From the UHGV virus genome UHGV-2104448: a DNA stretch of 34,172 nt. The stretch is one strand, 5' to 3'. Positions within the stretch are counted from its first letter, which is position 1; each line of letters opens with the position of its first letter. This stretch comes from a virus. Shown here one piece after another: positions 1 to 26,358 of this stretch. The notes beneath the pieces were generated by a model that saw nothing but the letters and a program-made list of their open reading frames with translations, did no database searches and had not been told where the DNA came from. Position numbers and translations under genes: made by a program.

Positions 1-423
1 TTACGTGGGTAGGATCACTCTGTTCGGACCACTGACAAGAGCATACTTATATTCATCATCCAGTTTGATTACATTATAGCCACCATAGAAGGGGCCAAAA
101 AACGAAACCTTCAACGCTGCAGTTTTAGTATCTCCAGTAAAGTATGCTTTACCTTCGCTCTCGCTCCATTTATTTTTCGTTGGATCGTATCCACGGTTAA
201 GTACACGAATCCCTCCGTCGTTCCGTTTTCCATAAGTAGCGCTGACCTGTTCCAGACCACGTTCGAACCGGTTCTCGAGGCGAGCTATTTCATACCATTT
301 TCCGAGGTAGCGGTTGGCGTCAAAATTTGTAATCGGCTGCACACCTTTAGGTGGTGTCGGGGCCTTACATGCTATAAGAGTGAAAGAGAGTGCAATGCCA
401 GTCAACACAGGCCATAACTTCAT
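1..423 (-). CDS. Lipocalin-family outer-membrane lipoprotein (Blc-like)
   Basis: 140-aa ORF with an N-terminal signal peptide and lipobox (LIAC). Lipocalin motifs are present: NFDANRYLGKWYEIARLENRFERG and KVSFFGPFYGGYNVI. Stop codon lies at positions 1-3. Shorter at the C-terminus than E. coli Blc as I recall it. Confidence 0.8.
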   Translation of the reverse strand: MKLWPVLTGIALSFTLIACKAPTPPKGVQPITNFDANRYLGKWYEIARLENRFERGLEQVSATYGKRNDGGIRVLNRGYDPTKNKWSESEGKAYFTGDTKTAALKVSFFGPFYGGYNVIKLDDEYKYALVSGPNRVILPT

Positions 424-615
424 AATAAATCCTGTACTTTTGATAGTTGAAAGTAAGTATGAAAGATAGATGATTACGACCGATCACTTAAAGAACTTTC
501 ATACTATATTAGGAATAGTCCATAACAGAAAAATTGTCAGTGATGACGCCAGAAAGGCAATTTATTCCGTGCACTACACAGTTTATCTGTTAATGAATTA
601 GTCAAGGGGGAGGAT

Positions 616-1575
616 ATGATAAAAAAACCTGTGATTGGAATCAGCGGTTGTTTGGCCGGTTCTGCTGTTCGTTTTGATGGTGGTCACAAAAGAGCTGACT
701 TTTTAATGGACAAATTAGTGGAATGGGTAACATTCAGACCAGTATGTCCGGAAATGGCTATAGGGCTGCCAGTTCCGCGTCCTGCTCTACGTCTTGTGCG
801 CTCGACGCAAGGAAATATACGGATGTGTTTCAGCCACGACCAGAATGAGGATGTGACAGAGAGAATGACAGAGTTTAGTCGTTCTTATATGGACAAATTA
901 AAGGATGTATCGGGGTTTGTGGTTTGTGCTAAATCTCCCAGCTGTGGCATGGAGCGCGTGCGTGTCTATGATGAAAATGGTAATCGAGGTCGTAAAGATG
1001 GAGTGGGACTATTTACGAGCACTTTGATGGAAAAGTTTTCCTGGCTACCGGTTGAAGAGGATGGGCGATTACATGATCCAGTGCTTCGTGAGAATTTTGT
1101 TGAAAGAGTTTTTGCTTTGCATGAACTCAATCACCTTTACAAGGAGAGATTATCAAGAAGAGAGTTATTAGCTTTTCATAGTCGTTATAAGCTTCAGTTG
1201 TTGGCGCATAGTCAGGCAGGCTATAAAGATATGGGACCATTTGTGGCTGCAATACACGAGTGGGCGGACCTTGAATCATACTTTGAGGTGTATCGTGATA
1301 AGCTGATGGCGATTCTCAGAAAACCTGCATCACGTAAAAATCACACGAATGTACTGATGCATATACAGGGGTATTTTAGTAACTACTTAAGTACACGCCA
1401 GCGTAAAGAGTTGAGCGAGGTTATACTTAACTATCGTTCTGGCACATTGCCTCTTCTTGCGCCGTTGACTCTGCTGAAGCATTATCTGGGTGAGTATCCT
1501 AATGATTACTTGCTTACACAGAATTACTTCGATCCCTATCCGGAAGAACTGGCTTTAAGGCTGATGGTGAATTAA
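616..1575 (+). CDS. DUF523 (TudS-like, putative 4Fe-4S) / DUF1722 two-domain protein, YbgA-like
   Basis: 319 aa with a strong RBS (AAGGGGGAGG) upstream. Cysteines at residues 12, 44 and 104 match the spacing of the three cluster-ligating cysteines of the DUF523/TudS family. The C-terminal half resembles DUF1722. Family assignment is from motif recall only. Confidence 0.6.
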   Translation: MIKKPVIGISGCLAGSAVRFDGGHKRADFLMDKLVEWVTFRPVCPEMAIGLPVPRPALRLVRSTQGNIRMCFSHDQNEDVTERMTEFSRSYMDKLKDVSGFVVCAKSPSCGMERVRVYDENGNRGRKDGVGLFTSTLMEKFSWLPVEEDGRLHDPVLRENFVERVFALHELNHLYKERLSRRELLAFHSRYKLQLLAHSQAGYKDMGPFVAAIHEWADLESYFEVYRDKLMAILRKPASRKNHTNVLMHIQGYFSNYLSTRQRKELSEVILNYRSGTLPLLAPLTLLKHYLGEYPNDYLLTQNYFDPYPEELALRLMVN

Positions 1576-2054
1576 CTGTATGCGATATCATCTGAAAGTG
1601 ATGAGTTCCTGCATGCAGGATATTTACAATCGTAAAAACTACACTATGATACCCATAGTGTCAGTTTGTATAAAAATCCTGTTCACGCTGAAGAAAATAT
1701 TGAGATGCAATTTAATGTTGGTAAATATACCAGCCCCAAAATATTTTATTCAATCTGTTTTTATATAAAGATATTTCAAGTGAATATTAAGAGCATATAA
1801 TATTATTATTGCACGCAGCTATTATAATATAACAGATTAGTTTAATGATTTTTTGCGAGTTAAACACATGCTTTTATAGTTGTGATGCAATGAGATTTTC
1901 CTTATTGTTGAACTGGCGAATATTGATTATCCACCTATACTTACCTGGTGTAACCCCAATGATATCAGGTGGATAATATGCCATACATATGTTCTATGGT
2001 GATGCCTCTAATTAGTTGAATCTGATGTATAATACGGGCTTTTGAGGTTATCTC

Positions 2055-2327
2055 ATGGCCAGAGTTAATATTCATTGTCCCCGTTGTCAGTCAGCTCAGG
2101 TTTACCGCCATGGTCAGAACCCTAAAGGCCGTGACAGATTTCGCTGCCGTGACTGCCACCGTGTGTTTCAGCTCACTTATACTTATCAAGCACGTAAGCC
2201 GGGTATGAAAGAGCTGATAACTGAAATGGCCTTTAATGGTGCCGGGGTTCGCGATACCGCCAGGACAATGAAAATTGGTATTAACACCGTCATCCGGACT
2301 TTAAAAAACTCGCGCCAAAGCGAATAA
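2055..2327 (+). CDS. insA: IS1-family InsA (transposition repressor / N-terminal part of InsAB')
   Basis: 90 aa with a CPRC...CRDC zinc finger and an HTH. About 50% similar to classical IS1 InsA by recall, so a divergent IS1 relative. Confidence 0.85.
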   Translation: MARVNIHCPRCQSAQVYRHGQNPKGRDRFRCRDCHRVFQLTYTYQARKPGMKELITEMAFNGAGVRDTARTMKIGINTVIRTLKNSRQSE

Positions 2328-2749
2328 CTTCTTCGCCTGTTGCCCATGCTGATGTGGCGCTTATCTGCGAGCTTGATGAGCAATAGAGCTACGTTGGCAG
2401 TAAAGCCCGGCAACACTGGCTCTGGTACGCGTACAACACCAAAACAGGCGGTGTACTGGCCTACACTTTTGGTCCCCGAACCGATCAAACGTGCCGGGAG
2501 CTACTGGCACTGCTTACACCCTTCAACATCGGCATGCTGACCAGCGATGACTGGGGCAGCTATGGCCGGGAGGTGCCGAAGAATAAGCATCTGACCGGCA
2601 AAATATTCACCCAACGCATTGAGCGTAATAATCTGACGCTACGCACCCGCATTAAGCGGTTGGCTCGTAAAATAATCTGCTTCTCACGCTCAGTTGAGAT
2701 CCACGAAAAAGTGATCGGAGCGTTTATCGAAAAACACATGTTCTACTAA
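2303..2749 (+). pseudogene. insB: IS1-family insB transposase frame interrupted by an in-frame amber codon
   Basis: The -1 frame relative to insA, entered at the A6C motif, reads ...HADVALICELDEQ*SYVGSKARQHWLWYAYN... The TAG at 2384-2386 replaces the conserved Trp of the DEQW motif. The remainder, to the stop at 2747-2749, is InsB-like. Confidence 0.75.
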
Positions 2750-2768
2750 TTGGATGCACTACCATCAC

Positions 2769-3145
2769 TTGCATGTCTTGCTATCTTATCTTCAGAGAAA
2801 ATAGTGCAAAGGTTTTTATTTGGGTGTCTTAATAGTTTAGGAAGTAAAGTTAAGGCTATTATCCACAAGGATATATCTGCAACATGGAGACTTTGTGATA
2901 TATCTTCAAGACTGTGCCTGAGTGAAAGTTTGTTAAAAAGAAAATTAAAACACGAAGGCTTATCATTTGGTAAACTAAATCTTGAAGAGCGAATGGTGAT
3001 GGCGGAAAGCTTATTAAGCTACAATTTATATTCTGTTGGGAAAGTTGCTGAGATATGCGGTTATGAAAATACGTCATATTTTGTAAGTGTTTTCAGAAGA
3101 TATTTTGGTGTTCCTCTCCACAAATATTCATCAAGATTTTTTTAG
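2769..3145 (+). pseudogene. AraC-family regulator, C-terminal HTH domain only (5' part replaced by the IS1 element)
   Basis: The ORF translation carries a typical AraC/XylS HTH (…ERMVMAESLL…VGKVAEICGYENTSYFVSVFRRYFGVPLHKY), similar to the AppY/EnvY group. The reading frame runs into the IS1 right end, and no N-terminal domain was recognised. Confidence 0.7.
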
Positions 3146-3223
3146 AAAAACACATGATGTAACGTGATGCGATTTAATGATTTTGTAATTTTCGTATTTG
3201 ATAATTTTATGATGCTTTCAGCT

Positions 3224-3255
3224 ACGCCAGAATAATCGCTGGCGTTTTTCTTTTT
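3224..3255 (+). terminator. Intrinsic terminator-like hairpin between the AraC fragment and the holin
   Basis: 7-bp stem ACGCCAG / CTGGCGT with an 8-nt loop, followed by TTTTTCTTTTT. Confidence 0.5.
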
Positions 3256-3351
3256 GAATAGATGTTCAGGCCTTACGCTAATGTAACTTCTATACCTTTC
3301 CCTCTTCGTTCCGAACCGTGTATACCATCCGTTATTTGCGGAGGTGAGGCT

Positions 3352-3567
3352 ATGAAATCCATGGACAAGTTAACAACGGGCATTGCCTACGGCACCTCCG
3401 CAGGCAGTGCTGGCTACTGGTTTTTACAGTGGCTTGATCAGGTCAGTCCATCACAGTGGGCTGCTATTGGTGTGCTGGGAAGTCTGGTTCTGGGCTTTCT
3501 GACTTACCTGACGAATCTGTACTTCAAAATAAGAGAAGACAAGCGTAAAGCTGCGCGGGGAGAGTAA
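3352..3567 (+). CDS. essQ: Class II holin (pinholin, S21-like) with dual-start motif
   Basis: 71 aa, [71 protein letters not shown], closely matching phage 21 S21 as I recall it. Two start codons (Met1-Lys-Ser-Met4) preceded by the RBS GGAGGTGAGG. The upstream extension to 3262 in the ORF track is probably not translated. Confidence 0.85.
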
Positions 3568-3571
3568 TTCA

Positions 3572-3886
3572 ATGACTCAAAACTATGAACTGATTGTGAA
3601 AGGGATCCGCAATTTTGAGAATAAAGTTACGGTAATCTTAACGTTACAGGACAAAGAACGTTTTGCCGGTGAAATTTTTGACCTGGACATCTCGCTGGAC
3701 CGTGTTGAAGGTGCCGCGCTGGAGTTTTGTGAGGCAGTTGCCAGAAGGAGCATCAGACAGGTCTTCCTGGATGTTGCTGCCGGGTTATGTGAAGGGGACG
3801 AGCTGTTGCCAGAAACGCGACCCTGTTCAGAGGCTCGGTATACCATAAAAATTAACAGTTCAGATAACTCGATTACGGGTTGTTAG
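3572..3886 (+). CDS. ydfR: DUF1327-family protein (YdfR-like), inserted between holin and endolysin
   Basis: 104-aa ORF occupying the position of ydfR in the Qin-type lysis cassette. No functional motif recognised. Confidence 0.65.
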   Translation: MTQNYELIVKGIRNFENKVTVILTLQDKERFAGEIFDLDISLDRVEGAALEFCEAVARRSIRQVFLDVAAGLCEGDELLPETRPCSEARYTIKINSSDNSITGC

Positions 3887-3941
3887 CTTTTTGCAGTTGG
3901 CTTTCCAGTATCTTTCATTGGTAGCATCCTGATAAATATCC

Positions 3942-4969
<1,028 letters not shown>

Positions 4970-5330
4970 GGTAATATTAAATCGGAACATTTACATCGCG
5001 GAATGTAAAATTTAAATAAAAAGGACTCTTCCATGAGCCAAAATTCCTGAAATCTTAAGGGTAAGATAAAAGGTCTTAATCAGAATGACACGTTTTATTA
5101 ATAAATAAAGCTATTCTTTCATTGCTGTGTTTTTCTTTACAAAAGTAATCCTTGCTATGGGTGGTTAATCATGCGTTAATGGTGTTCTGGTTTGTTACAA
5201 ATTTATCTGAAGCAGTCATTGTTATAATTTTATTATTTGTACCTCTTGAGATTTCCTTGTTGGTTTTTCTCTCTGATATTTTTTTCGGACCATTCTGCCC
5301 AAGGGCTAATTTCTTCAAAAGGTAATAATT

Positions 5331-5543
5331 ATGTCTAACAAAATGACTGGTTTAGTGAAATGGTTTAACCCTGAAAAAGGTTTTGGTTTCATCACGCCGA
5401 AAGATGGCAGCAAAGATGTGTTTGTCCATTTCTCAGCAATTCAGAGCAACGATTTCAAAACATTAACTGAGAATCAGGAAGTTGAATTTGGTATTGAGAA
5501 CGGACCTAAAGGTCCTGCCGCTGTTCATGTAGTGGCGCTTTGA
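5331..5543 (+). CDS. cspI: CspA-family cold-shock protein
   Basis: 70 aa with RNP1/RNP2 motifs (KGFGFI, VFVHF). Preceded by a roughly 350-bp AT-rich leader. Paralog assignment is by position after Rz, as in Qin. Confidence 0.8.
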
Positions 5544-5747
5544 GGTAGACAATATTACAAACCATATTCACTTTAGATGCCCGTGTTGTCATGGTTCCCA
5601 GTATAGAACATCATCTTTTGATGTTTCTGACATGAATCCTTTCGGGGCAAAATGTATCTTTTGTAAATCAATGATGATTACATTTGATAATATTTCACAA
5701 TACTTAAATGCCAGCCGTCTGTCGTTGGATTTAAAAAAGTGAAAATG

Positions 5748-5771
5748 AAGGCTCCTTCGGGAGCTTTTTTG
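5748..5771 (+). terminator. Intrinsic terminator (GGCUCC-UUCG-GGAGC stem plus U-run)
   Basis: Stable tetraloop hairpin followed by TTTTTT, about 200 bp downstream of the cspI stop. Confidence 0.55.
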
Positions 5772-5816
5772 CTTGGTGTCTATTCGATGGATACTCACAT
5801 ACTACGGTAACATCAT

Positions 5817-6045
5817 GAAAAAAATCATAGTTTTTTTTAACTCTGAACCAGCAGTGGTAGTGCCAGCGATGACTGGAGTTAACACCATCATGCGTGAATA
5901 TCCAAATGGCGAAAAAACACACCTTACTGTAATGGCCGCAGGGTTTCCATCTCTGACCGGAGATCATAAAGTCATTTATGTAGCCGCGGATCGACATGTT
6001 ACTTCAGAAGAAATTCTGGAAGCAGCAATAAGGCTCTTGAGTTGA
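5817..6045 (+). CDS. Small hypothetical protein (position of ynfN in Qin-type prophages)
   Basis: ORF beginning MKKIIVFFNSEPAVVVP… (start chosen at an internal Met of the 5773..6045 ORF). No recognisable domain. Confidence 0.4.
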
Positions 6046-6213
6046 TTTGATGCTATTGCATTGATAATTCAGGAAAATTCTCTTTGTCTGTTTGTGTAAA
6101 ATTTAGACTATCGTATGTTGATTATTGCGATGTTTCATCTTATCTTTTACACGTTTGCACCATATAATCGACTTACTGTGTAACTGGAAAGTCATAACAG
6201 ACTAAAAGAGGAA

Positions 6214-6390
6214 ATGATGAATATTGAAAACTTAAAAACAAAAGCAGAAGCAGATATTTCTGAATATATAACAAAAAAAATTATTGAACTTAAGAAAAAG
6301 ACCGGGAAAGAAGTTACCAGTATTCAGTTTACCGCACGGGAAAAAATGACGGGTCTTGAAAGCTATGATGTCAAGATTAATTTAATCTGA
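6214..6390 (+). CDS. gnsB: GnsA/GnsB-family small protein
   Basis: 58 aa, MMNIENLKTKAEADISEYITKKIIELKKKTGKEVTSIQFTAREKMTGLESYDVKINLI, with RBS AAAAGAGGAA. Below the ORF-track size cut-off; found by reading the DNA. Confidence 0.7.
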   Translation: MMNIENLKTKAEADISEYITKKIIELKKKTGKEVTSIQFTAREKMTGLESYDVKINLI

Positions 6391-6534
6391 TGTATTCAAT
6401 AATAAAATTTATCCATAAACCTCGTTTTTACGGGGTTTTGTTATATTTGAATGGTTCCGAATATCTAAATCACAATTGTTGATGGTTTTTATTAAATCAA
6501 TGCAGTCCGGCTCAGGAGTGAGAGAAGCCGGACG

Positions 6535-6966
6535 TTATGGTTTAGCGTGGTAAGATCTGTGTAGTTTTCTGGATGCTTTCAGTAAATAGTAATGAATTAT
6601 AAAGGTATAGTAATATCTTTTTTGTTCGTGGATATTTGTAACCCACCGAAAAACTCCTGCTTTAGCAAGGTTTCTTCTGTATTCCTGAAATGTGATCTCT
6701 CTGGATTTCAGCTTATTAGAGGTCGTTTCTATAAGATGCCTATCCTTTGAAAATTTGACAGACACAATGTTTTTTAGGCCCTTTAATAACACTGTATTAT
6801 CATTTTTTAATACAATATGAACATTCTCTGTGGCTAAATAGTAAATGTAATGTGAGACATTGTGACGTTTTAGCTCAGAATAAAACCATTGATAGTTTAA
6901 ATCGTTTCGAACTTTATCAAATATTTGTTTAAAAATGACTACCTGATCCATAGATAAACCTTCCAT
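6535..6966 (-). CDS. ydfO: DUF1398-family protein (YdfO-like)
   Basis: 143-aa ORF antisense to the flanking late genes. Matches the YdfO/YbcV family by recall. The true start may be the internal Met of MDQVVIF. Confidence 0.7.
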
Positions 6967-7008
6967 GTGATATGAGGGGGCGTAGTCTGCACGATTATCT
7001 AAATTGCT

Positions 7009-7242
7009 TCAATCTGGTCTGACCTGTTTTCTGAGCAATTCAGTAATGTCACTCTTTTCTTTGTTTGCTTCAGAAGAAACTCTTTTTTCTGAGCACAGTC
7101 TCCGGCGGCAGGCTTCAATGACCCAGGCTGAGAAATTCCCGGACCCTTTTTGCTCAAGAGCGATGTTAATTTGTTCAATCATTTGGTTAGGAAAGCGGAT
7201 GTTGCGGGTTGTTGTTCTGCGGGTTCTGTTCTTCGTTGACAT
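7009..7242 (-). CDS. ynfO: Small ribbon-helix-helix-like protein (DUF3950, YnfO/YlcI-like)
   Basis: 77 aa. The segment RNIRFPNQMIEQINIALEQKGSGNFSAWVIEACRRRL fits a beta-strand, helix, G-x-S/N turn, helix (RHH) pattern. Lies immediately upstream of ydfO on the same strand. Confidence 0.6.
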   Translation of the reverse strand: MSTKNRTRRTTTRNIRFPNQMIEQINIALEQKGSGNFSAWVIEACRRRLCSEKRVSSEANKEKSDITELLRKQVRPD

Positions 7243-7389
7243 GAGGTTGTCCCGTATTCAGTGTCGCTGATTTGTATTGTCTGAAGTTGTTTTTACGTTA
7301 AGTTGATGCAGATCAATTAATACGATATCTGCGTCATAATTGATTATTTGACGTGGTTTGATTGCGTAGATGCACGTTGTGACATGCAG

Positions 7390-7625
7390 ATGATAATTAT
7401 TATCATTTTGTGGGTCCTTTCCGGCGATCCGACAGGTTACGGGGCGGCGACCTCGCGGGTTTTCGCTATTTATGAAAATTTTCCGGTTTAAGGCATTTCC
7501 GTTCTTCTTCGTCGTAACTTAATGTTTTTATTTAAAATACCCCCTGAAAAGAAAGGAAACGACAGGTGCTGAAAACGAGCTTTTGGGCCTCTGTCGTTTC
7601 CTTTCTCTGTTTTTGGCCGTGGAAT
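7390..7625 (+). other. Lambda-type cos site (cosQ, cosN, cosB)
   Basis: GGGCGGCGACCT at 7442-7453 is the lambda 12-nt cohesive end, preceded by …CCGACAGGTTACG (lambda right end). Inverted Nu1-binding R-site-like elements lie at 7551-7565 (GAAAGGAAACGACAG) and 7591-7605 (CTGTCGTTTCCTTTC), just upstream of the Nu1 start. Confidence 0.8.
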
Positions 7626-7630
7626 GAACA

Positions 7631-8150
7631 ATGGAAGTCAACAAAAAGCAGCTGGCTGACATTTTCGGTGCGAGTATCCGTACCATTCAGAACTGGCAGG
7701 AACAGGGAATGCCCGTTCTGCGAGGCGGTGGCAAGGGTAATGAGGTGCTTTATGACTCTGCCGCCGTTATAAGATGGTATGCCGAAAGGGATGCTGAAAT
7801 TGAGAACGAAAAGCTGCGCCGGGAAGTTGAAGAACTGCGGCAGGCCAGCGAGACAGATCTCCAGCCAGGGACTATTGAGTACGAACGCCATCGACTTACG
7901 CGTGCGCAGGCCGACGCACAGGAGCTGAAAAATGCCAGAGACTCCGCTGAAGTGGTGGAAACCGCATTCTGTACTTTCGTGCTGTCGCGGATCGCAGGTG
8001 AAATTGCCAGTATTCTCGACGGGATCCCCCTGTCGGTGCAGCGGCGTTTTCCGGAACTGGAAAACCGACATGTTGATTTCCTGAAACGGGATATCATCAA
8101 AGCCATGAACAAAGCAGCCGCGCTGGATGAACTGATACCGGGGTTGCTGA

Positions 8151-8176
<26 letters not shown>
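7631..8176 (+). CDS. nu1: Terminase small subunit (Nu1)
   Basis: 181 aa, MEVNKKQLADIFGASIRTIQNWQEQGMPVLRGGGKGNEVLYDSAAV…, near-identical to lambda Nu1 as recalled, including the N-terminal HTH. Confidence 0.9.
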
Positions 8177-11857
<3,681 letters not shown>

Positions 11858-11877
<20 letters not shown>

Positions 11878-13177
11878 TCTCCCGCATATTGCCAGCATGG
11901 CTTTTAATGAGCCGCTGATGCTTGAACCCGCCTATGCGCGGGTTTTCTTTTGTGCGCTTGCAGGCCAGCTTGGGATCAGCCGCCTGACGGATGCGGTGTC
12001 CGGCGACAGCCTGACTGCCCAGGAGGCACTCGCGACGCTGGCATTATCCGGTGATGATGACGGACCACGACAGGCCCGCAGTTATCAGGTCATGAACGGC
12101 ATCGCCGTGCTGCCGGTGTCCGGCACGCTGGTCAGCCGGACGCGGGCGCTGCAGCCGTACTCGGGGATGACCGGTTACAACGGCATTATCGCCCGTCTGC
12201 AACAGGCTGCCAGCGATCCGATGGTGGACGGCATTCTGCTCGATATGGACACGCCCGGCGGGATGGTGGCGGGGGCATTTGACTGCGCTGACATCATCGC
12301 CCGTGTGCGTGACATAAAGCCGGTATGGGCGCTGGCCAATGACATGAACTGCAGCGCAGGTCAGCTGCTTGCCAGTGCCGCCTCCCGGCGTCTGGTCACG
12401 CAGACCGCCCGGACAGGCTCCATCGGCGTCATGATGGCTCACAGTAATTACGGCGCTGCACTGGAGAAACAGGGCGTGGAAATCACGCTGATTTACAGCG
12501 GCAGCCATAAGGTGGATGGCAACCCCTACAGCCATCTACCGGATGATGTCCGGGAAACATTGCAGTCCCGGATGGATGCAACCCGCCGGATGTTTGCACA
12601 GAAGGTGTCGGCATATACCGGCCTGTCCGTGCAGGCTGTGCTGGATACCGAGGCTGCAGTGTACAGCGGTCAGGAGGCCATTGATGCCGGACTGGCTGAT
12701 GAACTTGTCAACAGCACCGATGCGATCACCGTTATGCGTGATGCACTGGATGCACGTAAATCCCGTCTCTCAGGAGGGCGAATGACCAAAGAGACTCAAT
12801 CAACAACTGTTTCAGCCACTGCTTCGCAGGCTGACGTTACTGACGTGGTGCCAGCGACGGAGGGCGAAAACGCCAGCGCGGCGCAGCCGGACGTGAACGC
12901 GCAGATCACCGCTGCGGTTGCGGCAGAAAACAGCCGCATTATGGGGATCCTCAACTGTGAGGAGGCTCACGGACGCGAAGAACAGGCCCGCGTGCTGGCA
13001 GAAACCCCCGGTATGACCGTGGAAACGGCCCGCCGCATTCTGGCAGCTGCACCACAGAGTGCACAGGCGCGCAGTGACACTGCGCTGGATCGTCTGATGC
13101 AGGGGGCACCGGCACCGCTGGCTGCAGGTAACCCGGCATCTGATGCCGTTAACGATTTGCTGAACACACCAGTGTAA
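11858..13177 (+). CDS. C: Head maturation protease / minor capsid protein C
   Basis: GTG start overlapping the B end. 439 aa beginning (M)TAELRNLPHIASMAFNEPL…, with a ClpP/S49-like protease core. Confidence 0.85.
12572..13177 (+). CDS. nu3: Scaffolding protein Nu3 (in-frame internal start within C)
   Basis: ATG at 12572 in the C frame (MDATRRMFAQKV…), placed by analogy with the lambda C/nu3 nested arrangement. Confidence 0.55.
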   Translation: MDATRRMFAQKVSAYTGLSVQAVLDTEAAVYSGQEAIDAGLADELVNSTDAITVMRDALDARKSRLSGGRMTKETQSTTVSATASQADVTDVVPATEGENASAAQPDVNAQITAAVAAENSRIMGILNCEEAHGREEQARVLAETPGMTVETARRILAAAPQSAQARSDTALDRLMQGAPAPLAAGNPASDAVNDLLNTPV

Positions 13178-13186
13178 GGGATGTTT

Positions 13187-13516
13187 ATGACGAGCAAAGA
13201 AACCTTTACCCACAACAACGCCACCAATACTGACCCGGCTCATACCGCAACCGCGCCCGGCGGATTGAGTGCGAAAGCGCCTGCAATGACCCCGCTGATG
13301 CTGGACACATCCACCCGTAAGCTGGTTGCGTGGGATGGCACCACCGACGGTGCTGCCGTTGGCATTCTTGCGGTTGCTGCTGACCAGACCAGCACCACAC
13401 TGACGTTCTACAAGTCCGGCACGTTCCGTTATGAGGATGTGCTCTGGCCGGAGGCTGCCAGCGACGAGACGAAAAAACGGACCGCGTTTGCCGGAACGGC
13501 AATCAGCATCGTTTAA
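13187..13516 (+). CDS. D: Head decoration protein D
   Basis: 109 aa, MTSKETFTH…[11 protein letters not shown]. The N-terminal approximately 20 residues differ from lambda gpD; the rest is co-linear. Confidence 0.85.
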
Positions 13517-13536
13517 CTTTACCCTTCATCACTAAA

Positions 13537-13558
13537 GGCCGCCTGTGCGGCTTTTTTT
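13537..13558 (+). terminator. Terminator-like hairpin between D and E (GCCGC-CUGU-GCGGC plus U7)
   Basis: GC stem with a 4-nt loop followed by TTTTTTT, 20 bp after the D stop. Confidence 0.45.
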
Positions 13559-13571
13559 ACGGGATTTTTTT

Positions 13572-14597
13572 ATGTCGATGTACACAACCGCCCAGCTGCT
13601 GGCGGCAAATGAGCAGAAATTTAAGTTTGATCCGCTGTTTCTGCGTCTCTTTTTCCGTGAGAGCTATCCCTTCACTACGGAGAAAGTCTATCTCTCACAA
13701 ATTCCGGGACTGGTAAACATGGCGCTGTACGTTTCGCCGATTGTTTCCGGTGAGGTTATCCGTTCCCGTGGCGGCTCCACCTCTGAATTTACGCCGGGAT
13801 ATGTCAAACCCAAGCATGAGGTGAATCCGCAGATGACCCTGCGTCGCCTGCCGGATGAAGATCCGCAGAATCTGGCGGACCCGGCTTACCGCCGCCGTCG
13901 CATCATCATGCAGAACATGCGTGACGAAGAGCTGGCCATTGCTCAGGTCGAAGAGATGCAGGCAGTTTCTGCCGTGCTCAAGGGCAAATACACCATGACC
14001 GGTGAAGCCTTCGATCCGGTTGAGGTGGATATGGGCCGCAGTGCGGCGAACAACATCACACAGTCCGGCGTCACGGAGTGGAGCAAGCGTGACAAGTCCA
14101 CGTATGACCCGACCGACGATATCGAAGCCTACGCGCTGAACGCCAGCGGTGTGGTGAATATCATCGTGTTTGACCCGAAAGGCTGGGCGCTGTTCCGTTC
14201 CTTCAAAGCCGTCAGGGAGAAGCTGGATACCCGTCGCGGCTCTCATTCCGAGCTGGAGACAGCGGTGAAAGACCTGGGCAAAGCGGTGTCCTATAAGGGA
14301 ATGTATGGCGATGTGGCCATCGTCGTGTATTCCGGACAGTACGTGGAAAACGGCGTCAAAAAGAACTTCCTGCCGGACAACACGATGGTGCTGGGGAACA
14401 CTCAGGCTCGCGGTCTGCGCACCTATGGCTGCATTCAGGATGCGGACGCACAGCGCGAAGGCATTAACGCCTCTGCCCGTTACCCGAAAAACTGGGTGAC
14501 CACCGGCGATCCGGCGCGTGAGTTCACCATGATTCAGTCAGCACCGCTGATGCTGCTGGCTGACCCTGATGAGTTCGTGTCCGTTCAACTGGCGTAA
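13572..14597 (+). CDS. E: Major capsid protein E
   Basis: 341 aa starting MSMYTTAQLLAANEQKFKFDPLFLRLFF…, co-linear with lambda gpE. The ORF-track start at 13545 is an upstream extension. Confidence 0.9.
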   Translation: MSMYTTAQLLAANEQKFKFDPLFLRLFFRESYPFTTEKVYLSQIPGLVNMALYVSPIVSGEVIRSRGGSTSEFTPGYVKPKHEVNPQMTLRRLPDEDPQNLADPAYRRRRIIMQNMRDEELAIAQVEEMQAVSAVLKGKYTMTGEAFDPVEVDMGRSAANNITQSGVTEWSKRDKSTYDPTDDIEAYALNASGVVNIIVFDPKGWALFRSFKAVREKLDTRRGSHSELETAVKDLGKAVSYKGMYGDVAIVVYSGQYVENGVKKNFLPDNTMVLGNTQARGLRTYGCIQDADAQREGINASARYPKNWVTTGDPAREFTMIQSAPLMLLADPDEFVSVQLA

Positions 14598-14638
14598 TCA
14601 TGGCCCTTCGGGGCCATTTTCTCTCTGTGGAGGAGTTC

Positions 14639-15037
14639 ATGACGAAAGATGAACTGATTGCCCGTCTTCAGGAGCTGGGTGAGCAACTGAACCGCGATGT
14701 CAGTTTGACGGGAACGAAAGAAGAACTGGCGCTTCGTGTGGCAGAGCTGGAAGAAGAGCTTGATGACACGGATGAAACTGCCGGTCAGGACACCCCTCTC
14801 AGCCGGGAAAATGTGCTGACCGGGCATGAAAATGAGGTGGTATCAGCGCAGCCGGATACCGTGATTCAGGATACGGCTGAACTGGTCACGGTCGTGGCAC
14901 TGGTGACGCTGCATACTGATGCACTTCACGCCACGCGGGATAAACCTGTGGCATTTGTGCTGCCGGGAACGGCGTTTCGTGTCTCTGCCGGTGTGGCAGC
15001 CGAAATGACAGAGCGCGGCCTGGCCAGAATGCAATAA
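14639..15037 (+). CDS. FI: DNA-packaging protein FI
   Basis: 132 aa, MTKDELIARLQELGEQLNRDVSLTGTKEELALRVAELEEELDD…, with RBS GGAGG. Confidence 0.8.
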   Translation: MTKDELIARLQELGEQLNRDVSLTGTKEELALRVAELEEELDDTDETAGQDTPLSRENVLTGHENEVVSAQPDTVIQDTAELVTVVALVTLHTDALHATRDKPVAFVLPGTAFRVSAGVAAEMTERGLARMQ

Positions 15038-15048
15038 CGGGAGGCGCT

Positions 15049-15402
15049 GTGGCTGATTTCGATAACCTGTTCGATGCTGCCATTGCCCGCGCCGATGAAA
15101 CGATACGCGGGTACATGGGAACGTCAGCCACCATGACATCCGGTGAGCAGTCAGGTGCGGTGATACGTGGTGTTTTTGATGACCCTGAAAATATCAGCTA
15201 TGCCGGACAGGGCGTGCGCGTTGAAGGCTCCAGCCCGTCCCTGTTTGTCCGGACTGATGATGCGCGGCAGCTGCGGCGTGGAGACACGCTGACCATCGGT
15301 GAGGAAAATTTCTGGGTAGATCGGGTTTCGCCGGATGATGGCGGAAGTTGTCATCTCTGGCTTGGACGGGGCGTACCGCCTGCCGTTAACCGTCGCCGCT
15401 GA
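15049..15402 (+). CDS. FII: Head-tail connector protein FII
   Basis: 117 aa, MADFDNLFDAAIARADETIRGYMGTSATMTSGEQSGAV…. Confidence 0.85.
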   Translation: MADFDNLFDAAIARADETIRGYMGTSATMTSGEQSGAVIRGVFDDPENISYAGQGVRVEGSSPSLFVRTDDARQLRRGDTLTIGEENFWVDRVSPDDGGSCHLWLGRGVPPAVNRRR

Positions 15403-15413
15403 AAGGGGGATGT

Positions 15414-15991
15414 ATGGTCATAAAAGGTCTTGAGCAGGCCGTTGAAAACCTCAGCCGTATCAGCAAAACGGCGGTGCCTGGTGCCGCCGCAATGGCCATT
15501 AACCGCGTTGCTTCATCCGCGATATCGCAGTCGGCGTCACAGGTTGCCCGTGAGACAAAGGTACGCCGGAAACTGGTAAAGGAAAGGGCCAGGCTGAAAA
15601 GGGCCACGGTCAAAAATCCGCAGGCCAGAATCAGGGTAACCGGGGGGATTTGCCCGTAATAAAGCTGGGTAACGCGCGGATTGTCCTGTCCCGACGCAGG
15701 CATCGTAAAAAGGGGCAGCGTTCAGCCCTGAAAGGTGGCGGCAGCGTGCTTGTGGTGGGAAACCGTCGTATTCCCGGCGCGTTTATTCAGCAACTGAAAA
15801 ATGGCCGCTGGCATGTCATGCAGCGTGTGGCCGGGAAAAACCGTTACCCCATTGATGTGGTGAAAATCCCGATGGCGGTGCCGCTGACCACGGCGTTTAA
15901 ACAGAATATTGAACGGATACGGCGTGAACGTCTTCCGAAAGAGCTGGGCTATGCGCTGCAGCATCAACTGAGAATGGTAATAAAGCGATGA
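15414..15991 (+). pseudogene. Z: Tail completion protein Z, reading frame split by a 1-nt frameshift
   Basis: Two overlapping ORFs (15414..15659 in frame 0, 15650..15991 in frame 2) together cover a gpZ-like sequence. The total span is 578 nt (not a multiple of 3), one short of the 579 nt of lambda Z as recalled. The shift lies at about 15630-15660, beside a G6 run at 15642-15647. Confidence 0.7.
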
Positions 15992-16383
15992 AACATACTG
16001 AACTCCGTGCAGCCGTACTGGATGCACTGGAGAAGCATGACACCGGGGCGACGCTTTTTGATGGTCGCCCCGCTGTTTTTGATGAGGCGGATTTTCCGGC
16101 AATTGCCGTTTATCTCACCGGCGCTGAATACACGGGCGAAGAGCTGGACAGCGATACCTGGCAGGCGGAGCTGCATATTGAAGTTTTCCTGCCTGCTCAG
16201 GTGCCGGATTCAGAGCTGGATTCGTGGATGGAGTCCCGGATTTATCCGGTGATGAGCGATATCCCGGCACTGTCAGATTTGATCACCAGTATGGTGGCCA
16301 GCGGCTATGACTACCGGCGCGACGATGATGCGGGCCTGTGGAGTTCAGCCGATCTGACTTATGTCATTACCTATGAAATGTGA
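15988..16383 (+). CDS. U: Tail terminator protein U
   Basis: 131 aa, [43 protein letters not shown]…. Confidence 0.85.
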
Positions 16384-16390
16384 GGACGCT

Positions 16391-17131
16391 ATGCCTGTAC
16401 CAAATCCAGTAATGCCGGTGAAAGGGGCCGGGACCACACTGTGGGTTTATAAGGGGAACGGTGACCCTTATGCGAACCCGCTTTCAGACGTTGACTGGTC
16501 GCGTCTGGCTAAAGTTAAAGACCTGACGCCCGGCGAACTGACCGCTGAGTCCTATGACGACAGCTATCTCGATGATGAAGATGCGGACTGGACTGCGACC
16601 GGGCAGGGGCAGAAATCTGCCGGAGATACCAGCTTCACGCTGGCGTGGATGCCCGGAGAGCAGGGGCAGCAGGCGCTGCTGGCGTGGTTTAATGAAGGGG
16701 ATACCCGAGCCTATAAAATCCGCTTCCCGAATGGCACGGTCGATGTGTTCCGCGGCTGGGTCAGCAGTATCGGTAAGGCGGTGACGGCGAAGGAAGTGAT
16801 CACCCGCACGGTGAAGGTCACCAATGTGGGCCGTCCGTCGATGGCAGAAGATCACAGCACGGTCACAGCGGCAACCGGCATGACCGTGACGCCTGCCAGC
16901 ACCTCGGTGGTGAAAGGGCAGAGCACCACGCTGACCGTGGCATTCCAGCCGGAAGGCGCAACCGACAAGAGCTTCCGTGCGGTGTCAGCGGATAAAACAA
17001 AAGCCACCGTGTCGGTCAGTGGTATGACCATCACCGTGAAAGGTGTTGCTGCAGGCAAGGTCAACATTCCGGTCGTATCCGGTAATGGTGAACTTGCTGC
17101 GGTTGCAGAAATCAACGTCACCGCCAGTTAA
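16391..17131 (+). CDS. V: Major tail tube protein V
   Basis: 246 aa, [22 protein letters not shown]…, with a C-terminal Ig-like domain. Confidence 0.9.
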
Positions 17132-17146
17132 TCCGGAGAGTCAGCG

Positions 17147-17569
17147 ATGTTCCTGAAAACCGAATCATTTGAACATAACGGTGTGACCGTCACGCTTTCT
17201 GAACTGTCAGCCCTGCAGCGTATTGAGCATCTCGCCCTGATGAAACGGCAGGCAGAACAGGCGGAGTCAGACAGCAACCGGAAGTTTACTGTGGAAGACG
17301 CCATCAGAACCGGTGCTTGTGTGGTGGCGATGTCCCTGTGGCATAACCATCCGCAGAAGACGCAGATGCCTTCCATGAATGAAGCCGTTAAACAGATTGA
17401 GCAGGAAGTGCTTACCACCTGGCCTACAGAGGCAATTTCTCATGCTGAAAACGTGGTGTACCGGCTGTCCGGTATGTATGAGTTTGTGGTGAATGATGCC
17501 CCTGAACAGGCAGAGGACGCCGGGCCTGCAGAGCCTGTTTCTGCGGGAAAGTGTTCGACGGTGAGCTGA
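17147..17569 (+). CDS. G: Tail assembly chaperone G
   Basis: 140 aa, MFLKTESFEHNGVTVTLSELSALQRIEHLALMKRQ…. Confidence 0.85.
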   Translation: MFLKTESFEHNGVTVTLSELSALQRIEHLALMKRQAEQAESDSNRKFTVEDAIRTGACVVAMSLWHNHPQKTQMPSMNEAVKQIEQEVLTTWPTEAISHAENVVYRLSGMYEFVVNDAPEQAEDAGPAEPVSAGKCSTVS

Positions 17570-17985
17570 GTTTTGCCCTGAAACTGGCGCGCGAGATGGG
17601 GCGACCCGACTGGCGTGCCATGCTTGCCGGGATGTCATCCACGGAGTATGCCGACTGGCACCGCTTTTACAGTACCCATTATTTTCATGATGTTCTGCTG
17701 GATATGCACTTTTCCGGGCTGACGTACACCGTGCTCAGCCTGTTTTTCAGCGATCCGGATATGCATCCGCTGGATTTCAGTCTGCTGAACCGGCGCGAGG
17801 CTGACGAAGAGACTGAAGATGATGTGCTGATGCAGAAAGCGGCAGGGCTTGCCGGAGGCGTTCGTTTTGGCCCGGACGGGAATGAAGTTATCCCCGCTTC
17901 CCCGGATGTGGCGGACATGACGGAGGATGACGTAATGCTGATGACAGTATCAGAAGGGATCGCAGGAGGAGTCCGGTATGGCTGA
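17147..17985 (+). CDS. G-T: Tail assembly chaperone G-T fusion (programmed -1 ribosomal frameshift)
   Basis: The T reading frame (17551..17985) is the -1 frame relative to G and has no plausible independent start. The slippery heptamer G GGA AAG lies at 17545-17551 in the correct G frame. Confidence 0.75.
17545..17551 (+). promoter_or_regulatory. -1 programmed frameshift slippery site GGGAAAG (G to G-T)
   Basis: X XXY YYZ heptamer in the G frame, 6 codons before the G stop. Confidence 0.7.
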
Positions 17986-20557
17986 ACCGGTAGGCGATCT
18001 GGTCGTTGATTTAAGTCTGGATGCGGCCAGATTTGACGAGCAGATGGCCAGAGTCAGGCGTCATTTTTCCGGTACGGAAAGTGATGCGAAAAAAACAGCG
18101 GCAGTCGTTGAACAGTCGATGAACCGGCAGGCGCTGGCTGCACAGAAAGCGGGAATTTCCGTCGGGCAGTATAAAGCCGCCATGCGTATGCTGCCTGCGC
18201 AGTTCACTGACGTGGCCACGCAGCTTGCAGGCGGGCAAAGTCCGTGGCTGATCCTGCTGCAACAGGGGGGTCAGGTGAAGGACTCCTTCGGCGGGATGAT
18301 CCCCATGTTCCGGGGGCTTGCCGGTGCGATCACCCTGCCGATGGTGGGGGCTACCTCGCTGGCGGTGGCGACCGGAGCGCTGGCGTATGCCTGGTATCAG
18401 GGCAACTCAACCCTGTCCAATTTCAACAAAACGCTGGTCCTTTCCGGCAATCAGGCGGGACTGACGGCAGATCGTATTCTGGCCCTGTCCAGAGCCGGGC
18501 AGGCGGCAGGGCTGACGTTTAACCAGACCAGCGAGTCACTGACGGCGCTGGTGAATGCCGGTGTGCGTGGTGGTGAGCAGTTTGAGGCGATCAGCCAGAG
18601 TGTGGCGCGTTTCTCCTCTGCATCCGGCGTGGAGGTGGACAAGGTCGCTGAAGCCTTCGGGAAGCTGACCACAGACCCGACGTCGGGACTGACAGCGATG
18701 GCACGTCAGTTCCATAACGTGACGGCGGAGCAGATTGCGTATGTTGCTCAGTTGCAGCGTTCCGGAGATGAAGCCGGGGCATTGCAGGCGGCGAACGAGG
18801 CCGCAACGAAAGGGTTTGATGACCAGACCCGCCGCCTGAAAGAGAACATGGGCACGCTGGAGACCTGGGCAGACAGGACAGCACGGGCATTCAAATCCAT
18901 GTGGGATTCGGTGCTGGATATTGGTCGCCCGGACACTGCCCAGGGAATGCTGGAGAAAGCAGAAAAGGCTTTTGATGAGGCGGACAAAAAATGGCAGTGG
19001 TATCAGAGCCGAAGCCACCGGCGCGGTAAAACCTCAGCATTTCTTGCCAATCTCCGGGGAGCATGGGAGGACAGAGCGAATGCGCAACTTGGGCTTTCAG
19101 CCGCCACGTTGCAGGCCGATCTTGAAAAGGCCAGAGAGATGGCAGCAAAGGACTGGGCCGAGTCTGAGGCATCACGGCTGAAATATACCGAAGAGGCGCA
19201 GAAGGCTTACGAACGCCTGCAGACGCCGCTGGAGAAATATACCGCCCGTCAGGAAGAACTGAACAAGGCACTGAAAGACGGGAAAATCCTGCAGGCAGAT
19301 TACAACACGCTGATGGCGGCGGCGAAAAAGGATTATGAAGCGACGCTGAAAAAGCCGAAACAGTCCGGCGTGAAAGTGTCTGCGGGCGATCGTCAGGAAG
19401 ACAGTGCTCATGCTGCCCTGCTGACGCTTCAGGCTGAACTCCGGACGCTGGAGAAGCATGCCGGAGCAAATGAGAAAATCAGCCAGCAGCGCCGGGATTT
19501 GTGGAAGGCGGAGAGTCAGTTCGCGGTACTGGAGGAGGCGGCGCAACGTCGCCAGCTGTCCGCACAGGAGAAATCCCTGCTGGCGCATAAAGATGAGACG
19601 CTGGAGTACAAACGCCAGCTGGCTGCACTTGGCGACAAGGTTACGTATCAGGAGCGCCTGAACGCGCTGGCGCAGCAGGCGGATAAGTTCGCACAGCAAC
19701 AACGGGCAAAACGGGCAGCCATTGAGGCGAAAAACCGGGGGCTTACTGACCGGCAGGCAGCGCGGGAAGCCACAGAACAGCGCCTGAAGGAACAGTATGG
19801 CGATAATTCGCTGGCGCTGAATAACGTCATGTCAGAGCAGAAAAAGACCTGGGCGGCTGAAGACCAGCTTCGCGGGAGCTGGATGGCAGGCCTCAGGTCC
19901 GGCTGGAGTGAGTGGGAAGAGAGCGCCACGGACAGTATGTCGCAGGTTAAAAGTGCAGCCACGCAGACCTTTGATGGTATTGCGCAGAATATGGCGGCGA
20001 TGCTGACCGGCAGTGAGCAGAACTGGCGCAGCTTCACCCGTTCCGTGCTGTCCATGATGACAGAAATTCTGCTTAAGCAGGCAATGGTGGGGATTGTCGG
20101 GAGTATCGGTAGCGCCATTGGCGGGGCTGTTGGTGGCGGCGCATCCGCATCAGGCGGTACAGCCATTCAGGCCGCTGCGGCGAAATTCCATTTTGCAACC
20201 GGAGGATTTACGGGAACCGGCGGCAAATATGAGCCAGCGGGGATTGTTCACCGTGGTGAATTTGTCTTCACGAAGGAGGCAACCAGCCGAATTGGTGTCG
20301 GTAACCTGTACCGCCTGATGCGGGGCTATGCGGAAGGTGGTTATGTGGGCGGTGCCGGAAGTCCGGCGCAGATGCGGCGGGCTGAAGGCATTAATTTTAA
20401 TCAGAACAATCACGTGGTGATTCAGAACGACGGTACGAATGGTCTGCCAGGTCCACAGATGATGAAGGCAGTGTATGACATGGCCCGCAAGGGTGCCCGT
20501 GATGAAATTCAGGCACAGATGCGCGATGGTGGTCTGTTCTCCGGAGGTGGACGATGA
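17978..20557 (+). CDS. H: Tail tape-measure protein H
   Basis: 859 aa, coiled-coil-rich, with Gly-rich segments near the C-terminus. Start overlaps the T end. Confidence 0.9.
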   Translation: MAEPVGDLVVDLSLDAARFDEQMARVRRHFSGTESDAKKTAAVVEQSMNRQALAAQKAGISVGQYKAAMRMLPAQFTDVATQLAGGQSPWLILLQQGGQVKDSFGGMIPMFRGLAGAITLPMVGATSLAVATGALAYAWYQGNSTLSNFNKTLVLSGNQAGLTADRILALSRAGQAAGLTFNQTSESLTALVNAGVRGGEQFEAISQSVARFSSASGVEVDKVAEAFGKLTTDPTSGLTAMARQFHNVTAEQIAYVAQLQRSGDEAGALQAANEAATKGFDDQTRRLKENMGTLETWADRTARAFKSMWDSVLDIGRPDTAQGMLEKAEKAFDEADKKWQWYQSRSHRRGKTSAFLANLRGAWEDRANAQLGLSAATLQADLEKAREMAAKDWAESEASRLKYTEEAQKAYERLQTPLEKYTARQEELNKALKDGKILQADYNTLMAAAKKDYEATLKKPKQSGVKVSAGDRQEDSAHAALLTLQAELRTLEKHAGANEKISQQRRDLWKAESQFAVLEEAAQRRQLSAQEKSLLAHKDETLEYKRQLAALGDKVTYQERLNALAQQADKFAQQQRAKRAAIEAKNRGLTDRQAAREATEQRLKEQYGDNSLALNNVMSEQKKTWAAEDQLRGSWMAGLRSGWSEWEESATDSMSQVKSAATQTFDGIAQNMAAMLTGSEQNWRSFTRSVLSMMTEILLKQAMVGIVGSIGSAIGGAVGGGASASGGTAIQAAAAKFHFATGGFTGTGGKYEPAGIVHRGEFVFTKEATSRIGVGNLYRLMRGYAEGGYVGGAGSPAQMRRAEGINFNQNNHVVIQNDGTNGLPGPQMMKAVYDMARKGARDEIQAQMRDGGLFSGGGR

Positions 20558-20883
20558 AGACCTTCCGCTGGAAAGTGAAACCCGGTATGGATGTGGCTTC
20601 GGCCCCTTCCGTCAGGAAAGTGCGCTTTGGTGATGGCTATTCCCAGCGAGCGCCTGCCGGGCTGAATGCCGACCTGAAAACGTACAGCGTGACGCTTTCT
20701 GTTCCCCGTTGGGAGGCCACGGCGCTGGAGTCGTTTCTGGCTGAGCACGGGGGCTGGAAAGCCTTTCTGTGGACGCCGCCTTATGAGTGGCGGCAGATAA
20801 AGGTGACCTGCGCAAAATGGTCGTCGCGGGTCAGTATGCTGCGTGTTGAGTTCAGCGCAGAGTTTGAACAGGTGGTGAACTGA
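20554..20883 (+). CDS. M: Tail tip protein M
   Basis: 109 aa, MKTFRWKVKPGMDVASAPSVRKVRFGDGYSQRAPAGLNADLKTY…. Confidence 0.85.
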   Translation: MKTFRWKVKPGMDVASAPSVRKVRFGDGYSQRAPAGLNADLKTYSVTLSVPRWEATALESFLAEHGGWKAFLWTPPYEWRQIKVTCAKWSSRVSMLRVEFSAEFEQVVN

Positions 20884-21581
20884 TGCAGGATATCCGGCAG
20901 GAAACACTGAATGAATGCACCCGTGCGGAGCAGTCGGCCAGCGTGGTGCTCTGGGAAATCGACCTGACAGAGGTCGGTGGAGAACGTTATTTTTTCTGTA
21001 ATGAGCAGAACGAAAAAGGTGAGCCGGTCACCTGGCAGGGGCGACAGTATCAGCCGTATCCCATTCAGGGGAGTGGTTTTGAACTGAATGGCAAAGGCAC
21101 CAGTACGCGCCCCACACTGACGGTTTCTAACCTGTACGGTATGGTCACCGGGATGGCGGAAGATCTGCAGAGTCTGGTCGGTGGAACGGTGGTCCGGCGT
21201 AAGGTTTACGCCCGTTTTCTGGATGCGGTGAACTTCGTCAACGGAAACAGTGGCGCCGATCCGGAGCAGGAGGTGATCAGCCGCTGGCGCATTGAGCAGT
21301 GCAGCGAACTGAGCGCGGTGAGTGCCTCTTTTGTACTGTCCACGCCGACGGAAACGGATGGCGCTGTTTTTCCGGGACGTATCATGCTGGCCAACACCTG
21401 CACCTGGACCTATCGCGGTGACGAGTGCGGTTATAGCGGTCCGGCTGTCGCGGATGAATATGACCAGCCAACGTCCGATATCACGAAGGATAAATGCAGC
21501 AAATGCCTGAGCGGTTGTAAGTTCCGCAATAACGTCGGCAACTTTGGCGGCTTCCTTTCCATTAACAAACTTTCGCAGTAA
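20883..21581 (+). CDS. L: Tail tip protein L
   Basis: 232 aa with a C-terminal Cys cluster (CGYSGP…CSKCLSGC), lambda gpL-like. Confidence 0.85.
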   Translation: MQDIRQETLNECTRAEQSASVVLWEIDLTEVGGERYFFCNEQNEKGEPVTWQGRQYQPYPIQGSGFELNGKGTSTRPTLTVSNLYGMVTGMAEDLQSLVGGTVVRRKVYARFLDAVNFVNGNSGADPEQEVISRWRIEQCSELSAVSASFVLSTPTETDGAVFPGRIMLANTCTWTYRGDECGYSGPAVADEYDQPTSDITKDKCSKCLSGCKFRNNVGNFGGFLSINKLSQ

Positions 21582-21586
21582 ATCCC

Positions 21587-22330
21587 ATGACACAGACAGA
21601 ATCAGCGATTCTGGCGCACGCCCGGCGATGTGCGCCAGCGGAGTCGTGCGGCTTCGTGGTAAGCACGCCGGAGGGGGAAAGATATTTCCCCTGCGTGAAT
21701 ATCTCCGGTGAGCCGGAGGCGTATTTCCGTATGTCGCCGGAAGACTGGCTGCAGGCAGAAATGCAGGGTGAGATTGTGGCGCTGGTCCACAGCCACCCCG
21801 GTGGTCTGCCCTGGCTGAGTGAGGCCGACCGGCGGCTGCAGGTGCAGAGTGATTTGCCGTGGTGGCTGGTCTGCCGGGGGACGATTCATAAGTTCCGCTG
21901 TGTGCCGCATCTCACCGGGCGGCGCTTTGAGCACGGTGTGACGGACTGTTACACACTGTTCCGGGATGCTTATCATCTGGCGGGGATTGAGATGCCGGAC
22001 TTTCATCGTGAGGATGACTGGTGGCGTAACGGCCAGAATCTCTATCTGGATAATCTGGAGGCGACGGGGCTGTATCAGGTGCCGTTGTCAGCGGCACAGC
22101 CGGGCGATGTGCTGCTGTGCTGTTTTGGTTCATCGGTGCCGAATCACGCCGCAATTTACTGCGGCGACGGCGAGCTGCTGCACCATATTCCTGAACAACT
22201 GAGCAAACGAGAGAGGTACACCGACAAATGGCAGCGACGCACACACTCCCTCTGGCGTCACCGGGCATGGCGCGCATCTGCCTTTACGGGGATTTACAAC
22301 GATTTGGTCGCCGCATCGACCTTCGTGTGA
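21587..22330 (+). CDS. K: Tail tip assembly protein K (JAMM/MPN plus NlpC/P60 domains)
   Basis: 247-aa ORF. A JAMM-type H-x-H-x7-S-x2-D motif is present in HSHPGGLPWLSEAD. The C-terminal half is NlpC/P60-like with a candidate active-site Cys in GVTDCYTLF. The classical lambda annotation starts at the internal Met at 21731 (199 aa). Confidence 0.8.
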   Translation: MTQTESAILAHARRCAPAESCGFVVSTPEGERYFPCVNISGEPEAYFRMSPEDWLQAEMQGEIVALVHSHPGGLPWLSEADRRLQVQSDLPWWLVCRGTIHKFRCVPHLTGRRFEHGVTDCYTLFRDAYHLAGIEMPDFHREDDWWRNGQNLYLDNLEATGLYQVPLSAAQPGDVLLCCFGSSVPNHAAIYCGDGELLHHIPEQLSKRERYTDKWQRRTHSLWRHRAWRASAFTGIYNDLVAASTFV

Positions 22331-22899: not shown

Positions 22900-22956
22900 T
22901 GCAAAATGTTTTATGTGAAACCGCCTGCGGGCGGTTTTGTCGTTTATGGAGCGTGA

Positions 22957-26358
<3,402 letters not shown>

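Follow-up and report, generated by a model that had tools for sequence, protein, structure and literature searches.

In its lambdoid prophage, the 34,172-nucleotide stretch analysed here (UHGV virus genome UHGV-2104448, hereafter the window) carries a gene for an AraC-like helix-turn-helix (HTH) protein that is interrupted by an IS1-family insertion sequence. This gene is located downstream of the Q antiterminator, with ybgA on one side and the holin gene on the other; the rest of the window holds prophage lysis, head and tail genes. This insertion sequence has a stop codon in its transposase frame and no target-site duplication at its ends, which raises the question of how it came to occupy its site and whether it can still leave it. 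Our comparative analysis makes it very probable that an IS1N-like element inserted into the gene and that the copy decayed into an immobile relic, with an adjacent deletion as the somewhat favoured route to the missing duplication.

We defined the ends of the element (Table 1) with seven intact copies fetched from Escherichia coli chromosomes and plasmids. These IS1N-like copies are mutually identical over 766 bp, all of them start with GGTGATGCCT and finish with ATGCACTACC, and four of the seven are bordered exactly outside those ends by perfect 8–9 bp duplications (ATCATTCC, ATCAATTGC, ATCATTAT and AGGAAAAG). Because the seven copies share their ends and four have perfect duplications there, the element ends at 2763. 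The first-pass annotation had placed it at 1998–2768; its left end stands, the right end is corrected, and the five bases ATCAC that follow position 2763 belong to the flank. We also considered whether the ATCA behind the insertion sequence, shared by the window and the sister copies retrieved first, is part of the element, and rejected this, as most copies stop at 766 bp. The shared ATCA is a ranking artefact, in which hits whose flank extends the match are listed first, and in those first sister copies it belongs to their own duplications. Both the length of 766 bp and the imperfect 23-bp terminal inverted repeats agree with the IS1 family (about 770 bp, imperfect repeats of about 23 bp starting with GGT). 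A search with a degenerate terminal-repeat pattern returned just these two sites in the 34-kb window (chance expectation 0) and no second IS1N-like copy.

Table 1. The insertion sequence, its coding features and base changes, and the remnants of the interrupted gene (window coordinates).
Feature	Position	Strand	Description	Basis or comparison
IS1-family insertion sequence	1998..2763	+	766 bp, defective copy	
Left terminal inverted repeat	1998..2020	+	GGTGATGCCTCTAATTAGTTGAA	18/23 complementary to right repeat
Right terminal inverted repeat	2741..2763	-	GGTAGTGCATCCAATTAGTAGAA (minus-strand reading)	18/23 match to left repeat
insA	2055..2327	+	Intact, 90 aa; derived substitutions S3R and L72M	Pfam Zn_ribbon_InsA and HTH_Tnp_IS1
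A6C (AAAAAAC) motif	2303..2309	+	-1 programmed frameshift; context TTTAAAAAAC	Read directly; PGAP 'programmed frameshift'
insB' frame	2306..2749	+	-1 relative to insA; amber-interrupted; TAA at 2747-2749	Pfam DDE_Tnp_IS1
Amber codon	2384..2386	+	TAG replacing TGG (Trp of LDEQW)	All 18 orthologous copies examined
C to A	2063		InsA S3R	Intact consensus
C to A	2268		InsA L72M	Intact consensus
G to T	2329		Synonymous, insB' frame	Intact consensus
G to A	2385		TGG to TAG	Intact consensus
C to T	2673		T to I, insB' frame	Intact consensus
Left remnant of AraC-like HTH gene	1978..1997	+	ATG and first 20 nt (MPYICS)	Identical to gene start in L004-L006
Right remnant of AraC-like HTH gene	2764..3162	+	From codon 111; extra frameshift near 3' end	

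Within the IS1 family, the window copy is closest to a form that is common in E. coli, with 761 of 766 positions identical (99.35%). Of 5426 complete E. coli genomes, 1296 contain related IS1N-like sequence, at up to 44 places per genome, and copies at least 99% identical to the window element are frequent across E. coli genomes and plasmids. The intact E. coli protein (RefSeq WP_085949012.1), which PGAP labels just 'IS1 family transposase', is 95% identical at the amino acid level to an IS1N transposase of Shigella dysenteriae, and its 90% cluster includes proteins named 'IS1-like element IS1N family transposase' and 'iso-IS1N protein insA'. We would call the element IS1N-like, a name taken from this protein cluster and the S. 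dysenteriae proteins rather than from an ISfinder reference. Its earlier description as a divergent IS1 is apt relative to classical IS1A only and does not mark a novel form: the element is already known, being of the ordinary common E. coli IS1N-like type, and this copy is already marked as a pseudogene in public annotation. The literature on IS1N and IS1H yielded passing mentions and nothing at sequence level.

The absence of a target-site duplication, reported in the first-pass annotation, persists at the precise ends. Of the two 9-bp flanks compared there, the left one was correct and the right one, given as TTGCATGTC, becomes ATCACTTGC with the corrected end; ATGTTCTAT (1989–1997) and ATCACTTGC (2764–2772) agree at three of nine positions. 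Thus, the window copy lacks the 8–9 bp duplication typical of the family, which four of its seven sisters have. Shifting the ends to regain a duplication was rejected, as the ends taken from the seven intact copies leave no 8- or 9-bp repeat.

Both flanks occur without the insertion sequence in about 1000 E. coli genomes, and we compared three such IS-free loci in detail (L004, L005 and L006). In each of them, the sequence matching the left flank stops at locus position 2188/2189 and that matching the right flank begins at 2501, with 312 bp between them, so that the IS-free allele reads ATGCCATACATATGTTCTAT up to the left boundary, then CATTTTGG, continues through the 312 bp to GAAATCAAAT, and resumes beyond the right boundary with ATCACTTGC. 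Since the insertion sequence stands in place of these 312 bp and the boundaries are sharp at its ends, it replaces codons 7–110 of the 243-aa AraC-like gene, an in-frame deletion. The missing duplication is explained by this gap. A 12-nt likeness between the left flank (1985–1996) and the interior of the element (2734–2745; 11 of 12 positions) was considered as a remnant of a second insertion sequence and rejected, because the flank is native gene sequence in the IS-free alleles and, by our estimate, about one such chance match is expected per kilobase.

How this gap could have formed is suggested by the behaviour of insertion sequences in general, whose missing duplications commonly result from adjacent deletions or from recombination between IS copies (PMC11708052). 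These were also the two origins proposed in the first-pass annotation; the 312-bp gap supports that proposal and does not by itself separate them. Because no intermediate, with the insertion sequence, an intact duplication and a full-length gene, was found among the 5426 complete genomes, we infer both the order of events and the route. An IS1N-like element would have entered the AT-rich AraC-like gene between ybgA and holin. While its transposase was still active, it would have generated an adjacent deletion by intramolecular replicative transposition, which would have removed one copy of the target duplication together with the 312 bp and left the element between non-matching flanks. Neutral decay would have come next, with the G-to-A change that turned the Trp codon of DEQW into TAG and ended InsAB' at residue 110. 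This order would place the deletion before the loss of the transposase, unless help was provided in trans. We lean towards adjacent deletion as the route, because a single insertion suffices.

A less probable course, and one we still take seriously, is that two IS1N-like copies in direct orientation once lay 312 bp apart, either in one gene or in the homologous genes of two prophages, and that recombination between them deleted one copy and the interval. Such recombination, a known cause of missing duplications (PMC11708052), would yield exactly the observed structure, in which the half-duplication on the left would stem from one copy and that on the right from the other; three of the seven intact copies, all on plasmids, lack duplications as well. 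The flanks themselves are of two allele types: the left one is closer to L005 (95.5% identity, against about 80% to L006) and the right one to L006 (95%, against 81% to L005). Among IS-free genomes, none that combined the two ranked higher than the L006 type. These mosaic flanks might point to an exchange between two loci. However, site 1981, the last informative one to the left of the insertion sequence, already has the L006 state; the switch of allele type may therefore be older than the element and independent of it, and a crossover upstream of the element may be ordinary prophage mosaicism. Recombination between copies would also require two independent hits within 312 bp, and the search of the 5426 complete genomes brought up neither a locus with both copies nor one with either insertion alone.

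It is distinctly improbable that insertion and loss of the 312 bp took place in one transposition reaction, with no duplication ever formed. IS5 and IS481 are reported to make duplication-less, deletion-linked moves without an earlier resident copy (PMC11708052), and the lack of an intermediate among the 5426 complete genomes would fit such an event. Yet the IS-plus-deletion events in the lines of a long-term evolution experiment were all two-step adjacent deletions (PMC11708052), and a one-step event is not described for IS1 in the literature examined.

Whether the element can still move depends on its coding frames, in which insA and insB' are joined at the A6C motif as in the IS1 family. 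The first-pass annotation had read insA as intact, the frameshift motif as conserved and the TAG as lying at the conserved Trp of DEQW, and our alignments bear out all three: the motif and the frame offset are those of IS1A, the intact sister copies read TGG where the window has TAG, and in an alignment of the fusion proteins both the MDEQW of IS1A and the LDEQW of S. dysenteriae IS1N place the stop at the conserved Trp. Apart from this codon, the -1 frame is open from 2306 to 2749. The intact sister protein matches PF03811 (75 bits), PF12759 (94), PF03400 (252) and NF033558 (261, cut-off 100), in each case with a score that exceeds the threshold by a wide margin, and the InsA and post-stop fragment of the window copy match the IS1 domains too.

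The amber codon corresponds to residue 111 of the 231-residue InsAB' fusion, whose product would halt at residue 110. As the DDE_Tnp_IS1 domain comprises residues 102–231, nearly all of it lies beyond the stop, which precludes synthesis of the catalytic domain; the first in-frame ATG after the TAG, at 2534, is past the first part of the domain. The window copy thus has no uninterrupted InsAB' with an intact DDE domain, as an autonomous element would, and the products it can make are solely InsA and a truncated DNA-binding fragment. In IS1, it is InsAB' that carries the DDE site, and the transposase is reported to act mainly in cis (PMC12903888).

The stop codon is genuine. The 1685-bp stretch 1576–3260 recurs with the TAG in nine complete genomes at 99.9–100% identity, from sources that include duck, chicken, human and seawater and from China, Canada, Pakistan and New Zealand, among others. 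Nine further assemblies, in which distinct places were read, all carry the TAG and identical junctions, and the exact variant InsA protein is present on 217 contigs in a large protein collection. PGAP annotates the locus as a pseudogene ('programmed frameshift; internal stop'). That the TAG arose by error in sequencing or assembly, or that an amber suppressor reads through it and leaves the element autonomous, is an a priori possibility with almost no probability left, given the identical TAG in 18 independent assemblies, the other derived missense changes on the copy and the second stop in sublineages, the variant's confinement to a single locus and the lack of any tRNA gene in the window; the error reading is effectively refuted. 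Common amber suppressors would fill the place of the conserved Trp with Gln, Tyr or Ser, which likewise argues against read-through. The check for a suppressor covered the 34-kb window, where no tRNA gene is present.

Among the complete genomes, copies within one base of the window's are those nine, all at this locus, and the next-best copies differ by five bases; the TAG variant was not seen at any other locus in the 5426 complete genomes or the nine further assemblies. In seven of the nine host chromosomes it is the sole IS1N-like copy. One sequence, L018 (CP050194.1, a 5.7-Mb genome), was examined as a possible second location and rejected: it matches the window from 213 bp to the left of the insertion sequence onwards, and the junctions are unchanged. 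Upstream of window position 1785, this genome carries type VI secretion (ImpA/VasL) and pyruvyl-transferase genes (L018 1–2730) in place of lipocalin and ybgA, a separate rearrangement 213 bp to the left of the element.

The base changes of the copy complete this picture. Relative to the intact consensus, the five fixed changes comprise three missense, one nonsense and one synonymous change, and three further changes are private to sublineages: two missense changes (P to L and E to K) and another stop, in which the serine codon TCA became TAA. The total of five missense changes and two nonsense changes against a single synonymous one, where the seven intact copies elsewhere show no differences, is the pattern of a neutrally decaying relic. 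The non-autonomous character suggested in the first-pass annotation is well supported: InsAB' is cut at residue 110 of 231, the TAG is inherited, and the variant is restricted to one locus. Judged from these comparisons of sequence, the copy would be a fixed, immobile relic, vertically inherited and shuffled together with its prophage module.

Could the dead element nevertheless be retained for a function? It lies in the late-transcript leader between Q and the holin gene, where it might be kept as a polar block that damps lysis and 'grounds' the prophage, or as an InsA-only restraint on incoming IS1N-like copies; we consider either role very improbable. Selection on InsA is argued against by its two missense changes and the absence of any synonymous change. 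The value of the locus lies mainly in its correct annotation, and it raises no new biology. Nevertheless, with junctions and TAG alike in all 18 assemblies examined, the copy can serve as a lineage marker of one prophage module, and it offers a textbook-clean case in which an insertion sequence is deprived of its target duplication by a small deletion beside it and decays afterwards.

The interrupted gene seems to be a dispensable, AT-rich 'moron', that is, an accessory gene unneeded for the phage cycle. It is frameshifted also in the IS-free strain EC21Z-101, and other insertion sequences have independently hit the interval between ybgA, the HTH gene and the holin gene. In strain 1506 (L025 1426–2193), the HTH gene is closely followed by a classical IS1A with the 9-bp duplication TGATAATTG, and two other strains carry IS3- and IS2-family elements in the interval (H166 and H167).

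The identical IS locus also occurs in strain MY203L1, whose prophage is 97.8% identical to the window overall. The Q-to-lysis module (window 1–7000) has 0–3 differing columns per kilobase between the two, compared with 8–81 in the packaging, head and tail genes (7000–25500); such an IS-marked module in differing structural-gene backgrounds looks like prophage mosaicism. Further to the right, the segment 27083–31553 encodes a 1202-aa tail fibre whose C-terminal domain is Peptidase_S74, an intramolecular chaperone; beyond it, in reverse orientation, lies the gene for a complete 196-aa serine recombinase (Resolvase and HTH_7, Pin/Gin-like). MY203L1 has a counterpart of the fibre gene that is split by ISEc22, a separate tfaQ and a shorter recombinase gene of 423 bp, directly after which comes an IS66-family element. 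This region may be the remnant of an invertible fibre segment. An open reading frame for an MFS transporter (32889–34172) continues beyond the last base of the window and is probably chromosomal; in that case, the prophage boundary would fall at about 31.6–32.9 kb.

Four of the intact IS1N-like copies that we sampled are on plasmids; three of these (L019, L020 and L021) have no duplication, and L020 and L021 have a common right flank and different left flanks. This pattern suggests IS-mediated rearrangements on F-type plasmids.

Compared with known elements, the window copy resembles IS1N (iso-IS1 'nu' of S. dysenteriae) and the E. coli IS1N-like form in its 766 bp and terminal repeats, and it has the insA, A6C and insB' layout of its E. 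coli sister copies. It differs from these in the replacement of W111 by an amber codon, in S3R and L72M of InsA, in a T-to-I change of InsB' and in one synonymous change. In contrast to the sisters with 8–9 bp duplications, it has none and abuts a 312-bp deletion. Classical IS1A (the E. coli K-12 type, with the sequence taken from strain 1506) is more distant, with 57% nucleotide and 44% amino acid identity to the element. Common to both are terminal repeats of about 23 bp that start with GGT, an InsA with Zn-ribbon and HTH domains, a DEQW motif at the start of the DDE domain, and the AAAAAAC -1 frameshift with an equal frame offset; unlike the window element, the IS1A of strain 1506 has its 9-bp duplication. 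At this level of identity, mobilisation of the element by the IS1A transposase is doubtful.

Adjacent deletion is a classical activity of IS1, reportedly described by Reif and Saedler in 1975 for IS1 in the gal region, with a deletion boundary that had no flanking repeat. Catalogued cases of IS150, IS903 and IS10 (PMC11708052) also share this structure with the window copy: the insertion sequence marks the precise edge of a deletion and has no repeat at its flanks. Relative to these cases, nothing mechanistically different is visible in the window, where the deletion is small (312 bp).
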